From Microcystis aeruginosa NIES-2549 (GTDB lineage Bacteria; Cyanobacteriota; Cyanobacteriia; Cyanobacteriales; Microcystaceae), in NCBI RefSeq assembly GCF_000981785.2, contig NZ_CP011304.1, forward strand, positions 1,800,001 to 1,832,000: a DNA stretch of 32,000 nucleotides. Reading direction: 5' to 3'. Positions 9,122-31,514 of the stretch are shown here, piece by piece. The translations under genes and the position numbers were made by a program. Positions within the stretch are counted from its first letter, which is position 1. Every line of letters begins with the position of its first letter. The notes under the pieces are model-generated. The model saw nothing but the letters and a program-made list of their open reading frames with translations, ran no database searches and was not told the DNA's origin.

Positions 9122-10420
9122 TTAAATTCTCGTAATCGGTAAACGTAGCCAATCACTTAACTGCTGTGCCAACCAATCTAATTCGGCTTCGCTAACATCT
9201 TCACTGGCAGTGATAATATATTCTCGATGGTTGGCAACGAGAACCAGAGAAGGAGGAATAATATTAACATTTTCTCCCTGCATAGTGACAGTGACATTGC
9301 GACGAATGAGACTATAAATTTCCCAACTAGCGGCATCGGCAGTTAGTTTAAATTTCAGCCCCCAGAGTTTTTGATAGAGAGAAACTTTTTTGGGGGTAAT
9401 TTTTAACTCTAGTTCCCCCTGCCAAAAAGATTTCCATAACTGCCAAGATAAACTAGAGGAGATTAAATTGAGCAGAAAAATTAGGATAATCGGGATTAAA
9501 AAAGCGACCAGTTTCAGATCATAAATACCGACTATAGTTAAGAGAATGATCGTAAAAAATAGGGATGGTAAAAACTGTCTTAACTGGGTTTTGAGATTGT
9601 TGAAAAACTTTTGTTTGGTTTTACTAGCTATTTTTATTTCTAGGAGATTATCTGTTTTATAAACAGTAACTTCGCTGCCGTAGGGTTTGGTCAGATTACC
9701 AATAGATACTAAGATCAATTGACAACTATATAAGCTGGCTAAAGCTTCTGTCACCGAACGAAAATGAGAGTCGGGGTGGGAGTTTGATAATCTTTTTAAC
9801 CAATAGATGAAAAAAGCGCTTAGATTAGTTTTTTGCTCAAAGTTTTCGGGTATGTAACGATGCTTAATCCCCGTGGCTAAACTGATCAAAGTTTTGCCTA
9901 TATCCTGTAAGTCGGTGGTGGGAGAATCGGAATCAAAGGCAAAATCAACTAGATAAAAACGATGGGACTGGGTATCCAAGAGGATATTACTAAGTTTAAT
10001 ATTGCCGTGGTTAATGGGGAAATCCTGCTGATGGAGATAGGAGAGAATCTCCAAAAGATATTTGGCAATTTGTTTGAGATCTTGTTCTGCTAATAAATAA
10101 CTGGAGTTAAGATAGTTTTCTAAAGGCTGCGCCGATAAATAAGGTCGGACAATAGCGATGATTTGTTCCTGGGATGAATCTATCTCAAAGCTATCGAGGT
10201 ATTTGGGGAGAGATGGGTGAGAGAGTTGTCGCAACAGGGCAATTTTACTGGTTATTTCTCCGATAAACTGATTTCCTTGCCCCCTAGGAACAGAAATAAG
10301 TTTAATGATAACTAACTGGGTGGTGTGTCTGTCCCTCGCTAAGATTGTTTTTTTTCCCAGTAACTGTTGGACTTGATAACGACTATGGAGAACTTGATCG
10401 AGCATGGGCGAGGATAGCAT
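9122..10420 (-). CDS. Membrane-anchored protein with a degenerate Ser/Thr-kinase-like N-terminal domain (predicted pseudokinase)
   Basis: Kinase-like fold with HGNIKLSNILLD in place of HRDxKxxN and DFA in place of DFG. There is no glycine-rich loop (LGKKTILARD). Two hydrophobic helices (LPSLFFTIILLTIVGIY, LVAFLIPIILIFLLNLI) are followed by a roughly 110-aa C-terminal domain. Confidence 0.7.
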   Translation of the reverse strand: MLSSPMLDQVLHSRYQVQQLLGKKTILARDRHTTQLVIIKLISVPRGQGNQFIGEITSKIALLRQLSHPSLPKYLDSFEIDSSQEQIIAIVRPYLSAQPLENYLNSSYLLAEQDLKQIAKYLLEILSYLHQQDFPINHGNIKLSNILLDTQSHRFYLVDFAFDSDSPTTDLQDIGKTLISLATGIKHRYIPENFEQKTNLSAFFIYWLKRLSNSHPDSHFRSVTEALASLYSCQLILVSIGNLTKPYGSEVTVYKTDNLLEIKIASKTKQKFFNNLKTQLRQFLPSLFFTIILLTIVGIYDLKLVAFLIPIILIFLLNLISSSLSWQLWKSFWQGELELKITPKKVSLYQKLWGLKFKLTADAASWEIYSLIRRNVTVTMQGENVNIIPPSLVLVANHREYIITASEDVSEAELDWLAQQLSDWLRLPITRI

Positions 10421-12243: not shown

Positions 12244-14061
12244 TTATCTACGAACTAAATTTTTAAGAGTTCTAGGGTTAGCTATTTTCCATGTTCCCTC
12301 GTCATTTTCAAGATTATAGCGAACTAATAAGGTACTTAAACCACTATTTTTTTGATCAATTTTACCCTGATTGTTATAGAGGGTTCTTTCTTCAGTAACC
12401 ACCACATCCACTGTAGCTTGATCGCCAGAGGATGTAAAATTATTAACTGAATCTATTCTCTGAACTCCATAGATATAATAAGCACTATTATTAGCTAACC
12501 ATTCGGAAGAACTTTCTTGACCATCAGAGCTTTTTATTTTGTCATTATAAGCTTTACCTGTAAGTAATTCTTCTCCTAAATAGGTTTGATAGGAAGGACC
12601 AAAAATATCTCTTTTTGCCTTTAACCAGCGCTCGATTAAATCCACCGCTTCTGAACGAGAAATAGAGTTAACTGTCTGTTGAGGAACAGGTGAATAGACG
12701 GTTTCAGGACTGGGAGAATAGACAGTTTCAGGACTAGGTGAGGTATCGATGACACCTTGGGTAATTTTAACTTGATTAAAGTATTTAATTAGTTGCCTTT
12801 GTAAATCTTGAGCGCGATTTAAGTCACTAAAAGTTGCTACCTGAATATTACCATCATTAACAAAAGCATCGCGACAAAAGTTATTTTTAACTCTCTCTAA
12901 ACTATCCTCATCAGTTACTACAACTTTATAGTAAGTATCGGTGATATTCTCATCCCCACAGACAGATTTAGGAAACTCATTATTGATGGTAATATCTGAG
13001 TCTTGATTCTCTGGGGAAGGTGACGGAGAAATTGACTCATCTCCAGAAGAATTTGAGAGATAATAACTTAAGACAAAACCACCTAAAATGCCAGTACCGA
13101 TCATACTCCCTATAATTATTGCTTTCACCCATTCAGGTAAAGTGCGGGGATTAGAAACAGGTTTTGAAGTTACAGGAGAAATTACCTGAGTAGGAGTGGG
13201 AGGAGTGGGGATAACGATATTTGTTGCTACAATTGATGGGGGAGTTTGTAGCACCTCCAACATCTCTTTTGCAGTTAAATAACGTTCGTTAGAGCGCGGT
13301 GAAATAGTTTTATCTAGCACGGCTGCTAAACTGATATTAGTATCTAAAGCGAACTGCCGCCAATAAATTTTTCCTGTCATCGGATCGCTCTCTAACATTT
13401 CAGGAGTTTTGCCAGTTAGTAGATAAATAGCCGTCAATCCTAAAGCGTAGAGATCACTACTATAAACCGGACGACCGATCGCTTGTTCTGATGGCATAAA
13501 ACCTGGAGTACCGATAACAATAGAATTAAGAGAATGGCCCGAATTAGAAACCACTGTTCCCATAGTTTCTTTAACCGCACCGAAATCAATTAGGATCGGT
13601 AAATTATCATAAATCCGTAGAATGATATTATCGGGTTTTATATCTCGATGGATAATTTTTTGTCCGTGAACATAAATTAAAACCTGTAGAATACTAACTA
13701 AAATCTCTTTGACTTGATCATCGCTAAAAACTCCTTTACTCTGTATTCTTTGGCTGAGAGTTTCTCCCTCGATAAATTCCTCGACTAAATAAAATTGATT
13801 ATTTTCCTCAAAATAAGCGTATAGTTTGGGAATTTGAGGACTATTTTCGCTCAATTTTTCCAGGATAGCGGCTTCTCGCTCAAACCTTTCTTTGACAAGA
13901 TTGTGAACCTGGGGATTATCATTAATCGGTTTTAGCTGTTTAATCAGACAGAGACGTTTTGAAGGCATTTGGCTATCTTCTGCCAAAAAAGTCTCTCCGA
14001 AACCACCATCGGCAATTAATCGCAAGACTTTGTAACGATTTTGTAGAATTAAATCCGTCAT
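12244..14061 (-). CDS. Ser/Thr protein kinase with one TM helix and a C-terminal ARC6/DUF4101-like domain
   Basis: Canonical motifs GGFGETFLA, HRDIKPDNIIL, DFG and PGFMPSEQ. It has a Pro/Ser/Thr linker, a TM helix (AIIIGSMIGTGILGGFVL) and a tandem SPSPETVY repeat. Confidence 0.85.
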   Translation of the reverse strand: MTDLILQNRYKVLRLIADGGFGETFLAEDSQMPSKRLCLIKQLKPINDNPQVHNLVKERFEREAAILEKLSENSPQIPKLYAYFEENNQFYLVEEFIEGETLSQRIQSKGVFSDDQVKEILVSILQVLIYVHGQKIIHRDIKPDNIILRIYDNLPILIDFGAVKETMGTVVSNSGHSLNSIVIGTPGFMPSEQAIGRPVYSSDLYALGLTAIYLLTGKTPEMLESDPMTGKIYWRQFALDTNISLAAVLDKTISPRSNERYLTAKEMLEVLQTPPSIVATNIVIPTPPTPTQVISPVTSKPVSNPRTLPEWVKAIIIGSMIGTGILGGFVLSYYLSNSSGDESISPSPSPENQDSDITINNEFPKSVCGDENITDTYYKVVVTDEDSLERVKNNFCRDAFVNDGNIQVATFSDLNRAQDLQRQLIKYFNQVKITQGVIDTSPSPETVYSPSPETVYSPVPQQTVNSISRSEAVDLIERWLKAKRDIFGPSYQTYLGEELLTGKAYNDKIKSSDGQESSSEWLANNSAYYIYGVQRIDSVNNFTSSGDQATVDVVVTEERTLYNNQGKIDQKNSGLSTLLVRYNLENDEGTWKIANPRTLKNLVRR

Positions 14062-14560: not shown

Positions 14561-15343
14561 CTATTCCCTTTGAGTTGCTTGTCTAACCTGTTCAATCTCT
14601 AATTCTAAAGCTTGTGCTATCTGTTCCAAGTTTAATCCTAAGACCAATAAACGAGGAATAGAGGCTAATTTTGCCGCTAATTCGCCTTCTTGTCGGCCTT
14701 CCTCTAAAGCTTCCTGATACACTTTAGTTTGTTTTAAATCACTTAAACTAAACATCGCTTCTATCTCCTTTCTACTGACTTGGGGTAACTTATAAACCAA
14801 AATTGTCTCTATCAATTCTAAAAGTTCTTGCTGTTGTTTGAACTTAGGGAATTCTTGTCTAATCCGTGGAATTAATTGTTTTCCTTGCTCGATCGCTCTG
14901 GCGGTTGGTGCTACAATTAATTGTAACATCGATATACCCAGGGATTCCCCTTCCCTTAATTCCTCGAGATAAAAACGTAAAATCCTGCCGGAGTTGATTA
15001 ACTCCCCATAACGAGCAGTCTCTACGCTTTCCACTGAACGCCGAGGATAAATAACTACTCCCTGCCAGTTGTTGCTTAAGTCCGTTTGGTGGAGATAGAG
15101 GAAGATTTCACTGAAGAAACGGGAATAAAACCTATTATCTTTCTGAAATTGTACTTCTAGGAAATAAATAGGCTGATTGTTTGTATCAGGCAAAAAGACT
15201 CCATCGAGACGAAAGGACAATTGTTTAACTTCCACCGAGGAGAATTGATAAGAATTGGCGGTTTCGGGGGGAAGGTTCAACAAATCAAAGAAACAAGCGG
15301 GAAATCTTTGTAAGAGTTGATAGAAAATACTGTCAGTTTTCAC
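14561..15343 (-). CDS. Rpn-family recombination-promoting nuclease / putative transposase (PD-(D/E)xK, DUF4351-type C-terminus)
   Basis: N-terminus MKTDSIFYQLLQRFPACFFDLL, the core FLEVQFQKD, and a C-terminal helical QEGRQEGE...LLVLGL region, as in the multi-copy cyanobacterial family. Confidence 0.7.
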   Translation of the reverse strand: MKTDSIFYQLLQRFPACFFDLLNLPPETANSYQFSSVEVKQLSFRLDGVFLPDTNNQPIYFLEVQFQKDNRFYSRFFSEIFLYLHQTDLSNNWQGVVIYPRRSVESVETARYGELINSGRILRFYLEELREGESLGISMLQLIVAPTARAIEQGKQLIPRIRQEFPKFKQQQELLELIETILVYKLPQVSRKEIEAMFSLSDLKQTKVYQEALEEGRQEGELAAKLASIPRLLVLGLNLEQIAQALELEIEQVRQATQRE

Positions 15344-23789: not shown

Positions 23790-25350
23790 TGTCTTGCTGC
23801 TGCGGTTAGTTTTTTGATTTTGACATACTCCCACCGTCAAGCTACGCTGTGACGGGGGATTCTTTCCAGATCACTATCGGAAATTCCTTGTTCAACGAGA
23901 CAGCTTAGATTCTCAATGTCTCCACTGAAAATCCAGAGGCCGGACTCTCCCAAGGCGTTTGGGTCGGTTTCTGTTTGCCCAACAGTACCGTTGAGATGAT
24001 TTCCCAAATATTTCAACCCTTTTTTAAGAATATTTATTGCTGCATTATGATCCCTATCTAAGACTGTTTGACAATTAGGACATTGATGAGTTCTAGTGCT
24101 TAAGGTTTTTTGAACTCTCGTCCCACAAACTGAACAATCTTGAGAAGTGAAATGCGGTGGTACAGCAACACAAACAATCCGATAAATCTTAGCAAAATAA
24201 TTCAACCATTCAGTGAATTGATACCAAGAAGCATCGGAAATCGACTTAGATAGCTTACGGTTTTTGACTAAGTTTCTTACCTTTAAAGCTTCATAGACTA
24301 CCAGATCATTAGACTGGACTAACGCCAAAGCGTCTTTAATTGCTTTGTCTTTACGTTGTCTTGATACTTTAAGATGAAGCTTGGCTACCTTTACCCGTTG
24401 CTTATGATAGTTTTTAGACTGTTTCTTTCCTTTACGGAATTTCTTAGATAATCGTCGTTGTGCTTTTTGAAGTCGTTTTTCTGACTTTCTTAAATAACGT
24501 GGATTCTCTACAGTATTACCTTGAGCATCGGTATAAAATTCCTTTAACCCTAAGTCAATTCCTGTTATTTGTCCCGTCGGTTTATGGTATTCTTGCCGTT
24601 CTACGTCAATCAGAAACTGGCAATAATAACCGTCAGCACGTCTAACAACTCTTACCCGTCTAATCTGTTGTTCTGAATAATAAACTAAGGTCTTTTGACT
24701 ACACCATAAATCAAATTCTCCTGCTTTAAAGCCATCAGTAAATCTGATTTTACGTCGATCATCAGATAGTTTGTAGCCTGTTAGTTTATACTCAACATCT
24801 CGACTTCGCTCGACGTTGACCCTGAGCGAAGCCGAAGGGTCAACCGAACGACTATGCTTTTTGAACCGAGGAAAACCCTTTTTCCCAAGTATCTTAGCAT
24901 GACAATTCTGGTAAAACCGATTAATTGATTGCCAGGCTCTATCAGCAGCCGATTGACGAGCTTGAGAGTTTAATTTATTAACCCAAGGTGTCTCTTTATT
25001 GTTAGCTAGTACCGAGCAAAGTTTTTGGAGATCATTGCGGGTTGTACCCTTATGATCCATCCAATAACGAACACAAGAGTTACGCACAAACTGAGATGTT
25101 CTAATTGCTTCATCAAGCCGGTGATATTGCTCTAGTGTCCCGTTTTTTAGCTTTGCTTCTACGACTAGCATCTAACAATTCTCGACCATTGGTTAAGTAG
25201 ATTATAACACAGTTTGTCCACAGATGGTGGAATTAAACCGATACTCCGTTGCTGACCCTTCGACTTCGCTCAGGGTCATTGATATTCTGGTCGGATTTCA
25301 TCCCCCGCTAATTTTTGTGAGTATCTTATCGAAAAATGTAGCGGGGGTAT
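23790..25350 (-). mobile_element. TnpB-only IS200/IS605-family (IS1341-group-like) element; boundaries approximate
   Basis: A tnpB ORF with no tnpA. Subterminal hairpins lie on both sides: CCCCGTCA...TGACGGTGGG at about 23836-23865, and CCCCCGCTA...TAGCGGGGG at 25302-25348. An extended -10 box TGTTATAAT on the minus strand (25201-25209) precedes the ATG. Confidence 0.6.
23837..25171 (-). CDS. tnpB: RNA-guided endonuclease TnpB (IS605 OrfB family)
   Basis: RuvC-like motifs GIDLGLK, VVYEAL and RDHNAAINIL, plus the zinc ribbon CSVCG...CPNC. The N-terminus MLVVEAKLKNG...AIRTSQFVRNSCVRYW is typical of the family. Confidence 0.88.
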   Translation of the reverse strand: MLVVEAKLKNGTLEQYHRLDEAIRTSQFVRNSCVRYWMDHKGTTRNDLQKLCSVLANNKETPWVNKLNSQARQSAADRAWQSINRFYQNCHAKILGKKGFPRFKKHSRSVDPSASLRVNVERSRDVEYKLTGYKLSDDRRKIRFTDGFKAGEFDLWCSQKTLVYYSEQQIRRVRVVRRADGYYCQFLIDVERQEYHKPTGQITGIDLGLKEFYTDAQGNTVENPRYLRKSEKRLQKAQRRLSKKFRKGKKQSKNYHKQRVKVAKLHLKVSRQRKDKAIKDALALVQSNDLVVYEALKVRNLVKNRKLSKSISDASWYQFTEWLNYFAKIYRIVCVAVPPHFTSQDCSVCGTRVQKTLSTRTHQCPNCQTVLDRDHNAAINILKKGLKYLGNHLNGTVGQTETDPNALGESGLWIFSGDIENLSCLVEQGISDSDLERIPRHSVA

Positions 25351-25475: not shown

Positions 25476-26030
25476 CTAACGGCTAAAAATAATCTTCTCG
25501 ACGGCATCTAGGGCGCTTTCTAGGTCATCGTTGACGATTTGATAGGGGAATTCCTCGCTGGCGGCTAATTCTTCTCGGGCGCGTTCCAGACGACGGGCGA
25601 TCGCTGTTTCGGCATCTTTGCCCCGGCCGCGCAAACGACGTTCTAATTCCTCGAAACTGGGGGGTAGGATAAAGATTCTCCTCGCTTCGGGGAAGCTTTG
25701 ACAGACCTGTCTGGCTCCCTCCAATTCGATTTCTAGAATGACGGTCTGGCCTGCCGCTAATTGAGCGGCGATCGCTGATTGGGGGGTCCCATAGTAGTTG
25801 CCCGCGTATTCGGCCGATTCTAGAAATTCTCCAGCTGCCATTTTCTCCTCGAAACTGGGACGGTCGAGAAAATAGTAGTCTTCCCCCTCAATTTCACCCG
25901 GTCGAGGTGGGCGCGTAGTAGCGGATACTGACAGGTAGAGGTTAGGGAAACGAGTTAGTAAATGCCGTACTAGCGTACCCTTGCCCACACCGCTAGGGCC
26001 AGTAATGACGATTAATTGACCGGGTTGCAT
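25476..26030 (-). CDS. gmk: Guanylate kinase
   Basis: P-loop [26 protein letters not shown], and the YYGTP motif. Confidence 0.92.
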
Positions 26031-26042
26031 GGGGTTAATAAC

Positions 26043-26312
26043 TTAGTTGCTACTATTAACAGGGGCTTCCTTGTTGACCACGAAACGGTGAGCCACGGTT
26101 TCCGGTTGAATGGCCGACAGCACCACATGACTAGAATCGGTGATGATCACCGCACGAGTCCGTCTTCCGTATGTAGCATCGATTAAACAGCCTTTATCCC
26201 GAGCATCACTGATGATGCGTTTGATAGGAGCAGATTCTGGGCTAACGATGGCGATAACCCGATTAGCGGAAACTATATTACCGAAGCCAATGTTGATCAG
26301 TTGTATATCCAT
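26043..26312 (-). CDS. remA: RemA/DUF370-family regulator
   Basis: [72 protein letters not shown] closely parallels Bacillus RemA. The remA-gmk adjacency is a conserved arrangement. Confidence 0.88.
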
Positions 26313-26523
26313 AAGTTAACAAAGGTGTAGTCCTTTGTACAAAAGAGTGTGGAGGTATGATTACAATGTTATCGAGAAAGATTTAGCCTTACAACGCTAA
26401 AAATAACATTCTTAATCACATTTTAGTATTTTTTCAGGTTTTTTGCGATTTTAATTAAATTTGTTTACACGAGTCTCTATCTTAGGGAATAAAAAAGCAA
26501 AAGTCGGGAAAATTAGGGAATTT

Positions 26524-26629
26524 GGGGGGCGTGGGGTGTGGGGTGATGGGGAAGTGGGGTGTGGGGTGTGGGGTGTGGGGTGTGGGGTGTAGGGTGTGGG
26601 GTGTGGGGTGTGGGGTGTAGGGTGATGGG
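26524..26629 (+). repeat. G-rich heptamer array (GGGGTGT and variants, about 15 G-tracts)
   Basis: Read directly. It lies in the divergent intergenic region between remA (-) and the 26820 (+) gene. Confidence 0.95.
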
Positions 26630-26702
26630 AGCTTTTTTCAGTGTTGCCAAAGGCACGGCGTAGCCGTCCAGTAAACAGTAATCAGTGAACTGAAAACTCA
26701 CA

Positions 26703-26741
26703 ACTGATCACTGATAACTGATCACTGATAACTGATCACTG
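26703..26741. repeat. 14-mer tandem repeat ACTGATCACTGATA (about 2.8 units)
   Basis: Read directly. Confidence 0.9.
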
Positions 26742-26819
26742 TTAAGAATGTCCCCAGCAATGGCATGATAATTATGGTAACTAATAAGTATTCTCTATCC
26801 TTGGTGGGTGCGTTAGACT

Positions 26820-27026
26820 ATGGGGTTTGCTGATCTATCGATCGCTGATATTGCGGCAGAGTACGATCTGGCCGATGAATCTGTGTTGTCACTTTGCGAC
26901 CAATTAGGCATCTCCTATAAAGATCGGCAGACTAATCTCGCCCTAGAAGATGCTAAAGCAATTATCTCACTGATTTTATCCAAACGCTCAGGAGTAACCG
27001 CCTCGAAAACGGAAACGTCCCCTTGA
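26820..27026 (+). CDS. Small protein resembling the IF-2 N-terminal-domain family, 68 aa
   Basis: The pattern MGFADLSIADIAAEYDLADESVLSLCDQLGISYKDRQTNLALEDAKAIISL matches my recollection of small cyanobacterial IF2_N-domain proteins. Not searched. Confidence 0.5.
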   Translation: MGFADLSIADIAAEYDLADESVLSLCDQLGISYKDRQTNLALEDAKAIISLILSKRSGVTASKTETSP

Positions 27027-27154
27027 CTTTATTCCCAACTGCGATCTTCTCGGTGTCCGTGATCACTTAGAATCGATCGACACCCTCCCATAGGAGAAAA
27101 TTTTTTAGTCACCTTAAAATCCCCCCTCTTGGAACAATTGCGAGTAGGAGAACA

Positions 27155-27640
27155 ATGATCAAACGTTTGATTGTGGCAGCGATCGCTGTAGTCTTTTTTG
27201 TATTACAATTCAATCTTAACGGCGCTAGTGCCTTAGAACTCGATGAAGAAACCCTCACCATCACCCTCAATGATGCGGGGGGATCGGTGACTTTGACTTC
27301 TGAACAAGCGACGGAAGGACAGAAACTTTTTATCGCCAATTGTACTAAGTGCCACCTGCAAGGTAAAACCAAAACTAATAATAATGTCAGTTTGGGTCTG
27401 GCCGATCTGGCCAAAGCGGAACCCCCCAGAGATAATCTGTTAGCATTGATTGATTATCTAGAACATCCCACCAGTTACGATGGTGAAGATGATCTAAGCG
27501 AATTTCATCCCAATGTTAGCCGTCCCGATATCTTCCCAGAATTACGCAATCTGACCGAAGATGATGTGTATAACGTCGCCGCTTATCTGTTGGTTGCTCC
27601 CCGTCTAGACGAGCGCTGGGGTGGCACAATTTACTTCTAA
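27155..27640 (+). CDS. psbV: Cytochrome c-550 (PsbV), photosystem II extrinsic subunit
   Basis: Signal peptide, haem motif CTKCH, and the C-terminal region PNVSRPDIFPELRNLTEDDVYNVAAYLLV...WGGTIYF. Confidence 0.92.
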   Translation: MIKRLIVAAIAVVFFVLQFNLNGASALELDEETLTITLNDAGGSVTLTSEQATEGQKLFIANCTKCHLQGKTKTNNNVSLGLADLAKAEPPRDNLLALIDYLEHPTSYDGEDDLSEFHPNVSRPDIFPELRNLTEDDVYNVAAYLLVAPRLDERWGGTIYF

Positions 27641-27664
27641 ATTGCCCTCCATATATCCCTCTAT

Positions 27665-27690
27665 CCCTCTAGATTTCTAGGGGGATTTTT
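27665..27690 (+). terminator. Intrinsic terminator of psbV
   Basis: CCCTCTAG-attt-CTAGGGGG stem (one G-U pair) followed by ATTTTT. Confidence 0.65.
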
Positions 27691-27692
27691 GA

Positions 27693-28394
27693 TTAGACAG
27701 CAAATAGTTGTAAAAATTCTTTGAGTTCATTTAATACCTCATGCTCAAAGTTCCAAATATGACGTTTGTTTTTCATAACATAATCAAATCCATTCATACT
27801 GCATTTCCTGCCAGCTTGTTTTTTGTCTTCTGTGGAACAGGTATCAAATCGTAAATAGTTACTAATCCAAAACTTATCAAAATCTTTGTCTTTAATCGAT
27901 TTTTCTTGCTTGTTTAAACAATTTCTCCAGTCTTCTAAACAATCCGCATAGGTGGAATCTTGATTTTTAATCTTCTTGAGAACTGTTTCTAGTTCTCCTT
28001 GTCCTTCCACATTGGTAAAATAACAAGCAAATTCTGTGATTTGATCTTCTATTGTTGTCAATCTATAAAGCTGACTGGTTTCCCTAATATCTTCCGCTTC
28101 TGGATACACCTTTTTCAGACAATCATTAAGCCAATTTAGTCGCTCTGTCTTAGTATCAGAATCTTGATCGATAATAATACCAACTTTAGGGATAGCTTTT
28201 TTACCAAGAGTCGCCTTAATTTCATCGAAAGTGCTGGTTAATTTAGCTTTATCTAAACCCTGTAAACATTTATAGTCATCTTCCTCAAAGCAAATCGGTT
28301 TATCTAACTGAATTTTGTTAATATTTAAGTATTTTACTAGGGCTTCGATAAAAATTTTATCATTCTTGCTCTCGACGATTAATAAGTTACTCAC
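27693..28394 (-). CDS. TOPRIM-like small protein (DUF4435/DUF3226-like), partner of the upstream ATPase
   Basis: N-terminal LLIVESKNDKIFIEAL (conserved Glu) and VGIIIDQDSD (DxD-type acidic cluster). The start overlaps the ATPase stop by 8 nt. Confidence 0.6.
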   Translation of the reverse strand: MSNLLIVESKNDKIFIEALVKYLNINKIQLDKPICFEEDDYKCLQGLDKAKLTSTFDEIKATLGKKAIPKVGIIIDQDSDTKTERLNWLNDCLKKVYPEAEDIRETSQLYRLTTIEDQITEFACYFTNVEGQGELETVLKKIKNQDSTYADCLEDWRNCLNKQEKSIKDKDFDKFWISNYLRFDTCSTEDKKQAGRKCSMNGFDYVMKNKRHIWNFEHEVLNELKEFLQLFAV

Positions 28395-29481
28395 CTCTCA
28401 CCTCATTGCCATGTTTTAAGGCGTACTCTAAAGTGCTTAATTGTCTTTTAATACCAATAATTTTATCAGTTCTGGGACTCCTTGCTAGTTCAAAATAGGC
28501 CCCCTGTTCTGGATAATATTCTAACCCCACATCGGCAAAAGCTTGGATCATCTCTAAACTATGGGTTGTGGCAAAAATTTGGCTATCTAGTTCGATAGCT
28601 AATCGGAATAAAGTTTTCCAAATATCTGGGTAAGCAGTATAGTGAAGACCATTTTCTATTTCATCGATAAAAATAATTTTTTTAGGATTGATGAGTAGAG
28701 CAAAAATCATCTCTATCAGACGATTAATAGCTTCACCAAACAGAGATACGGGTAGGCGTTTTCTCTCTTTTCTTTTCAGATATAAATTTGGTTCACCCAG
28801 AAAAAAACTTTCTATTTTTTCAATGGACGGATCGAGAATTTGTAGAGCTTTTAGCACTTCTTCTTCCTGTTCATTAAAAACTATTTTAGTATAGGACTCG
28901 CTCAATTCTTCCAAAGATTTATTGACAGATGCGGCAATGATTACTGGTTCCTCATCACCCCCATTAGGTAAAGCTAGTATCTCCTTAGAACTAGCAATTA
29001 AAAAATAGTTCAGTTGCTCATCATTTGAGTCATGATCATGGTCAAAACTTGTGTGAATATTTAAGATAGAAATAACTGATTTATCTTTAGCGATAAAATC
29101 GTATAATTTTTGCCAGTCTTCAGAGATGCCTAGAACACTATCTTTAAGAGAACCAGAAATCGATATTTTTACCAATTTGTCTCCTTGGTTAGATTGGGAG
29201 CCTTTTAACTCAATAATATTTTTTCTATCAAGATTGAATAATAAATCATCCCAAGCATTTTTGGGAACAGCCCGAACAACTGCTAAAGATTGCCTACGAA
29301 TGATTCCTCTGATGTAGGGATGAATAGTATTTGGATAGGGATAACTATACAAAAATATTGCCTCTAACAGGGCAGTTTTCCCTGAATTGTTTTTACCACC
29401 AATTAAATTAACTCGCTCAAAACCTTCAATTTTGGTATGCTCAAAACATCTAAAATTACTAATTTCAATATCCTTAATCAT
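28387..29481 (-). CDS. ABC/SMC-type AAA ATPase (AAA_15/AAA_21-like)
   Basis: MIKDIEISNFRCF start; Walker A GGKNNSGKT; signature-like VSLFGEAINRL; Walker B IIFIDEIENGLH; H-loop ATTHS. I use the ATG at 29481 rather than 29535. Confidence 0.8.
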   Translation of the reverse strand: MIKDIEISNFRCFEHTKIEGFERVNLIGGKNNSGKTALLEAIFLYSYPYPNTIHPYIRGIIRRQSLAVVRAVPKNAWDDLLFNLDRKNIIELKGSQSNQGDKLVKISISGSLKDSVLGISEDWQKLYDFIAKDKSVISILNIHTSFDHDHDSNDEQLNYFLIASSKEILALPNGGDEEPVIIAASVNKSLEELSESYTKIVFNEQEEEVLKALQILDPSIEKIESFFLGEPNLYLKRKERKRLPVSLFGEAINRLIEMIFALLINPKKIIFIDEIENGLHYTAYPDIWKTLFRLAIELDSQIFATTHSLEMIQAFADVGLEYYPEQGAYFELARSPRTDKIIGIKRQLSTLEYALKHGNEVRGE

Positions 29482-29661
29482 GTTGACCTCTGGGCTGAAT
29501 AAGCATAAACTTAGGGTTAGGAATAAAGCTGGCAAGATAGGGATTTTTTTACTTAATTCTAGACGAGAATTGCCTCCAACTCTGAAAACGGTGACTATCC
29601 CCCACCGAAACTGCCGCCCTAAGAGATAATAGAAACAGGGATTTATTTACATTTCTTCATC

Positions 29662-31167
29662 ATGGCTAGAGACTTACGAGGATTTATTAAGCTTTTAGAA
29701 GAGCGTGGGCAATTACGCCGCATTAGTGCATCGGTCTCTGCCGATTTAGAAATTGCCGAGATCGCTAATCGGATGCTACAGGTAGGGGGACCGGCCCTAC
29801 TGTTTGAAAACGTGCAAGGGGCCGAGTTTCCCGTCGCTATTAACCTAATGGGAACCGTAGAACGCATCTGTTGGGCGATGAACCTGAATAAACCCGAAGA
29901 ATTGGAAGATTTAGGCAAAAAACTCGCCCTCTTGCAACAACCGAAACCGCCGAAAAAACTCTCCCAAGCGATCGATTTTGGTAAAGTGTTGTTTGATGTC
30001 CTGAAAGCCAAACCCAGCCGTAACTTTTTCCCCCCCTGTCAACAGGTGATTTTAGAAGGGGATGAAGTAGATTTAAAGAAAATTCCGATGATTCGCCCCT
30101 ATTCCGGCGATGCAGGTCAGATTATCACCCTAGGGCTAGTAATTACTAAAGATTGCGAAACGGGAACCCCTAACGTCGGTGTCTATCGCTTACAACTACA
30201 GTCTCACAATACCATGACCGTCCACTGGTTATCCGTGCGCGGTGGGGCGCGTCACCTGCGAAAAGCGGCACAGATGGGCAAAAAATTAGAAATAGCCATC
30301 GCTTTAGGGGTTGATCCTCTAATTATCATGGCCGCCGCCACTCCTATCCCCGTAGATCTCTCAGAATGGCTGTTTGCGGGATTGTACGGTGGTTCTGGGG
30401 TACAGTTAGCCAAGTGTAAAACCCTCGATTTAGAAGTGCCGGCCGACTCAGAAATCGTCCTCGAAGGAACAATTACTCCCGGAGAGGTATTGCCAGATGG
30501 ACCCTTTGGTGATCACATGGGTTACTATGGCGGTGTGGAAGATTCACCCCTGATTCATTTCCACTGTATGACCCATCGTCGCGACCCCATTTATTTAACC
30601 ACTTTTAGCGGTCGTCCTCCCAAGGAAGAGGCGATGATGGCTATCGCTCTTAATCGTATTTATACGCCGATTTTACGGCAACAGGTGTCGGAAATAAGAG
30701 ATTTTTTCCTGCCCATGGAAGCTTTAAGCTATAAAGCGGCGATTATCTCCATTGATAAAGCTTATCCCGGACAAGCGCGGCGAGCGGCCTTAGCTTTTTG
30801 GAGTGCCTTACCCCAGTTCACCTATACTAAATTTGTCATCGTCGTCGATAAGGAGATTAATATTCGCGACCCCCGGCAAGTGGTTTGGGCAATTAGTTCT
30901 AAAGTGGATCCAGTTCGCGATGTGTTTATTCTCCCAGAAACCCCCTTTGATAGCCTCGATTTTGCCAGCGAAAAGGTCGGTTTGGGGGGGAGAATGGGAA
31001 TTGATGCCACCACTAAAATGTATCCCGAAACGGACCACGAATGGGGGGAACCGTTGGAGTCGGATCCGGCCATGGCGGTCAAGGTTTCCCAACGCTGGTC
31101 AGAATACGGTTTAATCGATATTAATTTACAAGAAGTAGATGCCAATAAATTTGGCTACGAAATGTAG
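29662..31167 (+). CDS. ubiD: UbiD-family (prenylated-FMN-dependent) decarboxylase
   Basis: MARDLRGFIKLLEERGQLRRI..., the FGDHMGYY motif, and a length of 501 aa. Confidence 0.88.
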   Translation: MARDLRGFIKLLEERGQLRRISASVSADLEIAEIANRMLQVGGPALLFENVQGAEFPVAINLMGTVERICWAMNLNKPEELEDLGKKLALLQQPKPPKKLSQAIDFGKVLFDVLKAKPSRNFFPPCQQVILEGDEVDLKKIPMIRPYSGDAGQIITLGLVITKDCETGTPNVGVYRLQLQSHNTMTVHWLSVRGGARHLRKAAQMGKKLEIAIALGVDPLIIMAAATPIPVDLSEWLFAGLYGGSGVQLAKCKTLDLEVPADSEIVLEGTITPGEVLPDGPFGDHMGYYGGVEDSPLIHFHCMTHRRDPIYLTTFSGRPPKEEAMMAIALNRIYTPILRQQVSEIRDFFLPMEALSYKAAIISIDKAYPGQARRAALAFWSALPQFTYTKFVIVVDKEINIRDPRQVVWAISSKVDPVRDVFILPETPFDSLDFASEKVGLGGRMGIDATTKMYPETDHEWGEPLESDPAMAVKVSQRWSEYGLIDINLQEVDANKFGYEM

Positions 31168-31254: not shown

Positions 31255-31410
31255 AAATGATTCTACAGATAATGGTAAACCCAAACGTCAATGTAGAGAT
31301 TGTGGTGATCGGTGAGTGGGCAACCCTAACAATAAAATTATTTCGCCAGAGACTGAACCATAGACCTCTTGTAAAAATCAAAAATTGGCTCTTCTAGGTT
31401 CTGTGTGATC
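31255..31410 (+). pseudogene. Remnant of a transposase N-terminal zinc-ribbon region (IS1-like)
   Basis: The frame reads NDSTDNGKPKRQCRDCGDR*VGNPNNKIISPETEP*TSCKNQKLALLGSV*. This resembles NGK..GKQ.Y.C.DCGR.F..NP.NKIIS.E of IS1-type InsA-like regions, broken by stops. Confidence 0.4.
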
Positions 31411-31514
31411 AGTTTAACTTACTCTATGATCGATCGATCTTTGTGTCCTTTGTGTCTTTGTGGTTCGTTCCACCCACTCGCCAGCAGCACTGTGTCTTAG
31501 AATACATATCGTGC

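Follow-up and report, generated by a model that had tools for sequence, protein, structure and literature searches.

A two-gene island between psbV and ubiD

The stretch of DNA analyzed here, 32,000 nucleotides of Microcystis aeruginosa NIES-2549 (contig NZ_CP011304.1, positions 1,800,001 to 1,832,000; hereafter the window, numbered from its first nucleotide), carries a pair of minus-strand genes wedged between the plus-strand genes psbV and ubiD (Table 1). The first encodes an ATPase of the ATP-binding cassette (ABC) type and the second a smaller protein of family DUF3226, here called the partner; the features of the pair point to a probable role in antiphage defense.

Both open reading frames (ORFs) are confirmed in the position and on the strand given in a preliminary description of this DNA, which had been made from the sequence letters. 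The G+C content of the two genes is 0.334, compared to 0.453 in psbV, 0.481 in ubiD, and 0.415 in the whole window, and the pair (~1.8 kb) is the lowest-G+C stretch of that length in the 32 kb (mean 0.414, standard deviation 0.036), which bears out the AT-richer island reported in that description. The same source had the island begin 3 nt after the psbV terminator, which is approximately right: the partner stop codon starts at 27693, 2 nt past the T run and 6 nt past the stem. Each of the three ATPase motifs that it listed (GGKNNSGKT, IIFIDEIE, and ATTHS) was verified against the DNA, and the 233-residue length of the partner, its IIIDQDSD cluster, and the 8-nt overlap of the two genes were confirmed. 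The terminator stretch (27663-27690) is 97-100% conserved between both partner allele types described below, and the UbiD protein of the window is 98-99% identical to those of Microcystis species representatives.

The partner N terminus reads SNLLIVESKNDKIFIEAL, with IIIDQDSD further in (DQD at 28161-28169). The arrangement of the overlap suggests that it serves translational coupling. We place the ATPase start at the ATG at 29481 because the family profiles begin at residue 19 and because an AGAGG lies 5 nt upstream. The TTG at 29535 was considered as an alternative start and ruled out, given that all profiles and homologues begin at MIKDIEISNF. Public annotations of some ATPases (window positions 29482-29535; L003, L005, and P0269) have 398-399 amino acids (aa), starting from the upstream TTG with MRVGGDSRLELSKK...; judging from the family profiles and the Shine-Dalgarno-like site, the added residues are an annotation artifact. 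No flanking direct or inverted repeats marking an insertion site were found around the pair, and no mobility genes lie beside it in the window. A scan of 26000-30000 returned no Rfam RNA families, and a crude scan with an Escherichia coli-type consensus found no clear sigma-70-like promoter on the minus strand of 29482-29661.

Table 1. Coordinates of the gene pair, its motifs, and its flanking features in the window
Feature	Positions	Strand	Basis
psbV (cytochrome c-550)	27155-27640	plus	Cytochrom_C550, 2e-55
psbV terminator-like hairpin with T run, left island edge	hairpin 27663-27686, T run to 27690	plus	sequence
DUF3226 partner gene, 233 aa, GTG start	27693-28394	minus	DUF3226, 3.7e-23
Exchangeable effector cassette (nearly whole partner gene and last ~17 ATPase codons)	27725-28440	minus	drop in DNA identity
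Partner DxD motif, D76-Q-D78, end of third strand	28161-28169	minus	model strand 70-76
Partner first strand, LLIVES, ending in E8 (codon 28371-28373)	28368-28385	minus	model strand 3-7
Gene overlap, ATPase stop and partner start, 8 nt	28387-28394	minus	read from sequence
ATPase gene, 364 aa	28387-29481	minus	AAA_15 4.4e-23, AAA_21 3e-16, AbiLi 2.2e-60
H-loop ATTHS, residues 304-308	28558-28572	minus	checked on DNA
Walker B IIFIDEIE, residues 269-276	28654-28677	minus	checked on DNA
ATPase variable insert, residues ~42-207	28861-29358	minus	high omega, allele replacement, lower pLDDT
Walker A/P-loop GGKNNSGKT, residues 28-36	29374-29400	minus	checked on DNA
Shine-Dalgarno-like AGAGG, 5 nt upstream of ATPase ATG	29487-29491	minus	read from sequence
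ubiD	29662-31167	plus	UbiD, 2e-75

An ABC-type ATPase with a variable insert

PADLOC-DB profiles served as defense models. The ATPase matches AAA_15 and AAA_21 of Pfam and covers both AbiLi (PDLC02336; profile positions 1-340 of 340) and PDC-M38A (6.5e-54) over the whole profile length. Its match to AriA, the ATPase of the PARIS system, is partial (8.6e-26); the weaker matches also include mad3 (1.3e-14), HEC-01A (2.3e-12), HEC-02A, GajA, PtuA, and Old. Across 42 ATPase homologues the invariant residues are G28, G29, N31, N32, G34, K35, and T36 in Walker A, D273 and E276 in Walker B, and A304, T306, H307, and S308 in the H-loop. An hhalign comparison places the Walker B motif on that of P2 Old (E value of 1.5e-5 for an alignment spanning the signature and the Walker B region).

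In Foldseek searches, the AlphaFold2 model of the ATPase (pLDDT, or predicted local distance difference test, score of 84.8) matched PtuA, the ATPases of retrons Eco8 and Eco7, the heads of Rad50 and SMC proteins, GajA, and Thermus OLD with E values of 1e-9 to 1e-11; the OLD and GajA structures concerned are 6p74, 8sm3, and 8u7i. AriA is not among the best 50 fold matches. A beta-rich insert lies between the N- and C-lobes of the model, where a long coiled coil would be. We propose, by analogy with characterized systems, that this insert (residues ~42-207) is a candidate trigger-sensing region and that the gene product is a candidate sensor and regulator. The N terminus of the ATPase also matches recF and Rad50 models, as well as Rad50 or RecF structures; the RecF equivalog TIGR00611 reaches 43.8 bits against a cutoff of 172, with residues 20-64 alone aligned, and the protein is not assigned to it.

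A DUF3226 partner with a TOPRIM-like core

Pfam DUF3226 (PF11536) matches the partner with 82.9 bits against a cutoff of 27, aligning residues 3-229 to profile positions 2-204 of 208. It is the sole Pfam match at an E value of ≤1, and DUF4435 (PF14491) was not found at that limit. Among the defense models, PDC-M38B matches at 9.6e-10 over the first 143 of the 219 positions of the best M38B profile, and AbiLii (PDLC02338) matches weakly (2.1e-5; residues 108-229 on profile positions 48-121 of 125). Only 301 of 1.84 billion cluster representatives belong to the family at an E value of ≤1e-3, which makes it a small one. In a sample of 68 diverse relatives (mean column identity of 26%), all matched DUF3226 and 67 matched PDC-M38B (best, 1.5e-17), compared to one for AbiLii (the window partner itself), one for AriB (the PARIS effector; 4e-4), and two for mad4; a few also match HEC-01B. 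OLD-like_TOPRIM is matched by 20 of the 68 (best, 3e-5) and Toprim by 5; RloB (5/68), OLD-like_TOPRIM_1 (3/68), and DUF4276 (2/68) are rarer.

Four residues (E8, D12, D76, and C159) are invariant in the 68 relatives, and D78, C152, G72, and G133 are kept in at least 90% of them. The AlphaFold2 model of the partner (pLDDT of 92.1, predicted template modeling score of 0.89) has a core of strands alternating with helices (3-7, 28-30, 70-76, and 110-127, with 110-115 as the last strand of the four-stranded alpha/beta core) and, beyond it, a helical domain (135-229). It shows the TOPRIM signature, with E8 at the end of strand 1 and D76-x-D78 at that of strand 3. The two best fold matches in the PDB are both TOPRIM effectors, retron Eco2 (E value of 0.01, probability of 0.95) and AriB (E value of 0.03), although neither match is significant. 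In an hhalign comparison with P2 Old, the IVESkNDk strand falls on the start of the TOPRIM domain, although weakly (E value of 0.003, probability of 10%). The single partner sequence retrieved nothing meaningful from the PDB sequences, and the sole match of the family profile there was the N terminus of PH0156 (2p62; E value of 0.25). Nothing was found at an E value of ≤1e-3 in the viral fold library BFVD, and no PHROGs family matched. We conclude that the catalytic core is probably derived from TOPRIM, in a protein that as a whole appears to have no close solved relative. The partner is thus proposed as a candidate effector, a metal-dependent nuclease of TOPRIM-like type whose C-terminal domain is helical and contains cysteines.

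The Cys-rich C-terminal half belongs to the DUF3226 family and is not an extra domain, because the profile covers residues 3-229. As for the cysteines themselves, C124, C152, C159, C186, and C198 are invariant among cyanobacterial relatives; the second partner allele (allele B) has Pro at position 186, and family-wide just C159 (invariant) and C152 (≥90%) hold.

These results sharpen the preliminary description in several respects. Its ABC-type assignment is upheld by the AAA_15/AAA_21 matches and by the full-length AbiLi and PDC-M38A matches, and, among the families that it had listed for comparison, AAA_15/AAA_21 and DUF3226 matched and DUF4435 did not. Its TOPRIM-like partner stands as regards E8/D76/D78, the strand order of the model, and the OLD-like_TOPRIM matches of the relatives; whole-fold matches are weak. 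The Cys-rich half that it had left unassigned now has a family.

Variation among Microcystis loci

We compared 11 Microcystis loci, namely, the window, L001 to L008, NIES-87 (L090), and NIES-1211 (L091). The pair adjoins ubiD in 10 of them, yet both genes are intact in only four (the window, L001, L003, and L008), so the pair, whose conservation across strains had been posed as a question, is not functionally core. Six of the 11 loci carry a disruption of one gene or of both, through frameshifts, insertions resembling miniature inverted-repeat transposable elements (MITEs), insertion sequence (IS) elements, or truncations. The effector gene is broken in five of these six degraded loci and the ATPase gene in two; in L002 the partner is intact and the ATPase is interrupted. 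Synteny in L006 ends right at the ubiD promoter. An empty site is not definable because psbV adjoins ubiD only in Microcystis.

Rates of synonymous (dS) and nonsynonymous (dN) substitution, computed for six sequences only, give a dS of 0.06-0.24 for the ATPase and 0.09-0.16 for ubiD, an ATPase dN ~10 times that of ubiD, and a dN/dS ratio (omega) of 0.3-0.5 versus 0.02-0.06. Within the ATPase, codons 46-75 and 151-195 reach an omega of ~1.0-1.3, whereas the catalytic motifs have values as low as 0.04-0.06 (Walker A, 0.05-0.06). The ATPase gene and the neighboring ubiD have the same dS, so the module has long resided at this site; a recent horizontal insertion of the pair was considered and rejected for the same reason.

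Exchange between alleles affects both genes. A cassette comprising nearly the whole partner gene and the last ATPase codons has been replaced in L002, L003, and L008; compared to L003 and L008, DNA identity is 40-75% within its limits and 95-100% outside them, with sharp edges. The two partner alleles share 41% protein identity, and both are DUF3226 proteins. In NIES-87-type ATPase alleles, residues ~42-207 are replaced by a segment with 20% identity, whereas residues 1-41 are 100% identical and residues 208-345 are ~75% identical. All four combinations of insert type with C-tail/effector type are present among Microcystis protein clusters, which argues for modular recombination. The covariation of ATPase C-tail and partner allele was not counted as evidence of interaction, since a recombination tract and dual coding by the overlap and Shine-Dalgarno site explain it equally well. 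The pattern of variation and decay fits a fast-evolving, costly conflict system and does not fit a core function.

Mobile elements have left traces at these loci. Insertions of 117-229 bp in the promoter region, the ATPase gene, or the partner gene (L001 2502-2730, L002 2523-2639, and L005 4512-4691) look like MITEs. The L001 insertion has terminal inverted repeats GCTCTTC...GAAGAGC, and one end matches 24 nt downstream of ubiD (window 31388-31411). In M. aeruginosa NIES-87, an IS element with a DDE_3 transposase and HTH_32 lies between the partner gene and psbV (L090 7934-8883), and across ubiD from it is a resolvase-TnpB pair of the IS607/IS605 type. In L001 and L006, the edges of the island are also the exact points at which synteny is lost. 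This suggests that the borders of the psbV-ubiD interval are hot spots of insertion and rearrangement.

The pair in other genomes

The order of ATPase gene and then DUF3226 gene is kept in all six other genomes inspected (Rippkaea, Nostoc, Planktothrix, Pannus, a Microcystaceae metagenome-assembled genome [MAG], and Acinetobacter). In each, the pair stands alone between unrelated housekeeping genes, at a different locus every time, and lies 6-17 GC points under its surroundings. As in the window, the overlap measures 8 nt in Rippkaea, Nostoc, Planktothrix, and the Microcystaceae MAG; it is 4 nt in Pannus, and in Acinetobacter a 5-nt gap lies between the genes.

Two apparent exceptions to a chromosomal location were dismissed. 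In "Acinetobacter phage MD-2021a" (L086; CAKLQH020000003.1, 240 kb) the pair is surrounded by glyQS, ast, and other housekeeping genes, and the 4.09-Mb Acinetobacter "plasmid" NZ_CP104448.1 is a chromosome-scale molecule; both seem to be bacterial chromosomal DNA that was misfiled.

Other features of the window

Some further observations concern the rest of the window. Two tandem arrays occupy the intergenic region between remA and orf68 (26526-26629, ~14 copies of GGGGTGT; 26688-26745, ~8 copies of AACTGAT) and produce a strong GC skew and a spurious minus-strand "PTPHT" ORF. The 68-aa ORF upstream of psbV (26820-27026, plus strand) is 97-99% conserved across Microcystis species representatives. 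A relatively AT-rich gene (GC of 0.396) for an IS605-family TnpB adjoins clpP on the minus strand (23837-25171; OrfB_IS605, 5e-23; Cas12f1-like TNB domain, 5e-22). Another AT-rich part (GC of 0.33-0.39) comprises two genes for Ser/Thr protein kinases, of which one carries an ARC6-like IMS domain, as well as a gene of family DUF2887 (9122-10420, 12244-14061, and 14561-15343, minus strand).

Proposed function and alternatives

Gene structure, family membership, conserved catalytic residues, pairing, behavior as an AT-rich cassette, allelic exchange, and frequent inactivation are established for this pair. We consider it fairly probable that the two genes form an antiphage conflict module of the abortive-infection type, composed of an ABC ATPase and a separate TOPRIM-like nuclease. 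By analogy with better-known systems, we infer an interaction between the two proteins, a sensing role for the insert, a nuclease activity with its target, and a defense phenotype. The mechanism that we propose is one of restraint and trigger because of the analogy with PARIS. The 8-nt overlap would let a single transcript yield both proteins together, and the DUF3226 nuclease would be kept inactive by the ATPase. A phage-derived trigger may then be recognized by the variable insert (residues ~42-207), and ATP binding or hydrolysis at the core of Walker A, Walker B, and H-loop would free or activate the partner. Its putative metal site (E8/D76/D78) would cut nucleic acid, perhaps tRNA or DNA, and growth of the infected cell would stop.

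A bolder extension of this proposal, which we hold to be possible but on balance doubtful, is that the psbV-ubiD interval is a fixed "plug-and-play" immune locus in which sensor and effector modules are shuffled independently by recombination, with DUF3226 as a TOPRIM-derived nuclease class that has a Cys-containing helical domain of its own. The sensor module may be the ATPase insert (~42-207) and the effector module the DUF3226 cassette with the matching ATPase C-tail; the target of DUF3226 may then differ from that of AriB or OLD.

Other explanations bear on the same evidence. We think it rather unlikely that the pair works in the manner of OLD or Gabija, as a stable complex of ATPase and DUF3226 nuclease that cuts phage or damaged DNA under nucleotide control without release of a toxin. 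Fused GajA, Thermus scotoductus OLD, and retron Eco8 match the ATPase fold at least as well as AriA, which is outside the best 50; among the partner relatives, OLD-like_TOPRIM is matched by 20 of 68 and AriB by 1 of 68; and L002, with an intact partner and no intact ATPase, is easier to understand if the partner is harmless alone. However, the pair resembles PARIS and AbiL in having separate proteins with coupled translation, no GajB-type helicase lies beside the pair, and the effector is the component most often inactivated (5/6 degraded loci), which suggests that it carries a cost. A selfish, toxin-antitoxin-like addiction cassette, with no antiphage benefit to the host, seems improbable. 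There would be little for addiction to stabilize, because mobility genes, flanking repeats, and plasmid or phage carriage are lacking; in addition, the fast-evolving, exchanged sensor-like insert and the conserved catalytic motifs fit an arms race better, and the PDC-M38 family is found embedded in restriction and BREX loci. Addiction would nonetheless suit a lone two-gene unit that is AT-rich in seven genomic backgrounds, lies outside defense islands, and frequently decays, and PARIS itself formally behaves as a type II toxin-antitoxin pair (PMC13064643).

The union of a TOPRIM-like core with conserved cysteines in the partner, together with the recF and Rad50 matches of the ATPase N terminus, in both models and structures, recalls housekeeping pairs for DNA repair or recombination such as RecF and RecR (TOPRIM plus a Cys zinc finger) or Rad50 and its nuclease. 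Such a role is very unlikely here: the recF score falls far below its cutoff (43.8 versus 172 bits), with the P-loop region alone aligned, the distribution is patchy, with different loci per genus and 6 of 11 Microcystis loci disrupted, and an omega ~10 times that of the neighboring ubiD and swapped alleles are atypical of core repair genes. Hardly credible, too, is that the pair is a nonfunctional relic that in this strain is still intact by chance. Most Microcystis loci examined do carry frameshifts, MITE or IS insertions, or truncations, and the crude E. coli-type consensus scan gave no clear minus-strand sigma-70-like promoter in 29482-29661; but neither ORF is truncated and none of the family-invariant residues is missing, omega is 0.3-0.5 overall rather than 1 and 0.04-0.06 at the catalytic motifs, and the Shine-Dalgarno-like sites and coupled overlap are intact.

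Several observations weigh against an antiphage module with a TOPRIM-like nuclease. The Toprim models of Pfam do not match the window partner itself, and its fold retrieves nothing from the PDB at an E value of ≤1e-3, with TM-scores of 0.25-0.35. No other defense genes lie near the pair in the window, where its flanks are psbV and ubiD. The phage and plasmid collections searched hold no genuine copies of the pair, and a scan of IMG/VR with a closer partner alignment gave no relatives; PARIS, by contrast, is often satellite carried. HEC-01, a distantly related split system of ATPase and TOPRIM protein, was not protective in the single study that put it to the test. The estimates of dN/dS draw on the six sequences mentioned above. 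L002 argues weakly against a free toxin that is held in check by the ATPase, although lost coupled translation could explain that locus. Finally, the literature searched for DUF3226 and PDC-M38 contained no mention of either and no experimental evidence for the family.

If the pair is an abortive-infection-type module, it would belong to a DUF3226-effector branch of the ABC ATPase plus TOPRIM defense family for which the searched literature holds no experimental work or mention. Microcystis is a former of toxic blooms. It is also reported to devote one of the largest fractions of any bacterial genome to defense (PMC3632139). Such a module in this genus is unsurprising to a specialist, and the shuffling of sensor and effector at a fixed locus is a useful experimental handle. 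With two sensor-insert types crossed with two effector types, and with many natural knockouts, the strains offer a way to relate alleles to the host range of phages and to tell the sensing part from the killing part. Should the pair merely copy PARIS or AbiL, the gain would be better annotation of a widespread cyanobacterial pair that now reads "AAA family ATPase / DUF3226."

Comparison with known systems

The pair shares an ABC ATPase core and, putatively, E...DxD TOPRIM chemistry with OLD (P2 Old and Thermus scotoductus OLD) and GajA. In these proteins, however, ATPase and TOPRIM are fused in one polypeptide, whereas the Microcystis pair consists of two ORFs with a stop codon between them, and they have no counterpart of the helical, Cys-containing C-terminal domain of the partner. 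HEC-01 and MADS3-MADS4 resemble the pair in being a split ABC ATPase and TOPRIM-like partner, with a distant sequence relation to it; MADS is a larger, multigene, methylation-associated system.

PARIS is, to our knowledge, the only mechanistically solved split system of ATPase and TOPRIM protein, and its complex has the stoichiometry AriA6:AriB3. The AriA hexamer sequesters AriB until a phage trigger releases it, and AriB then cleaves tRNA-Lys (PMC11464382; PMC13064643); AriA doubles as sensor and antitoxin, with little conservation in the regions that bind the trigger (PMC11464382). The Microcystis pair has the same split into an AAA_15/21 ABC ATPase and a putative TOPRIM effector, and its variable part is likewise located in the ATPase, namely, the insert. 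In contrast, the effector belongs to DUF3226 and not, as in PARIS, to DUF4435, its fold match to AriB reaches an E value of just 0.03, the ATPase has 364 aa compared to 464 aa in the deposited AriA chain, and neither a satellite nor a prophage carries the pair. Since its effector lacks DUF4435, the pair is not PARIS itself; the relation to PARIS and OLD first suggested for this locus, perhaps as a distinct subtype, is supported.

The lactococcal AbiLi and AbiLii are larger than the Microcystis proteins, at ~458 and ~297 aa. AbiL confers an abortive-infection phenotype against lactococcal phages (PMC13064643). It likewise joins an ABC ATPase to a separate, small, predicted TOPRIM/OLD-like nuclease, and AbiLi is the best PADLOC match of our ATPase. 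AbiLii, however, is matched weakly and partially by the window partner and by none of 67 other relatives, so that the likeness of the pair to AbiL appears confined to the ATPase.

PDC systems, 145 in number, are untested "guilt-by-embedding" candidates, so defined because copies lie within BREX, DISARM, or type I restriction-modification (RM) loci (Payne et al., bioRxiv 10.1101/2024.01.29.577857). PDC-M38 is a two-gene cassette with the same gene order as the Microcystis pair, whose adjacent, co-oriented genes match M38A and M38B; judged by the E values of these profiles, without PADLOC's own score and coverage thresholds, the pair has the two-model, adjacent-gene pattern of this candidate. 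PDC-M38 was defined from copies inside BREX, DISARM, and type I RM loci, whereas the Microcystis pair stands alone between psbV and ubiD. As far as the sequences can tell, the closest catalogued relatives of the pair are the PADLOC candidate PDC-M38 and lactococcal AbiL, and PARIS is its probable cousin.

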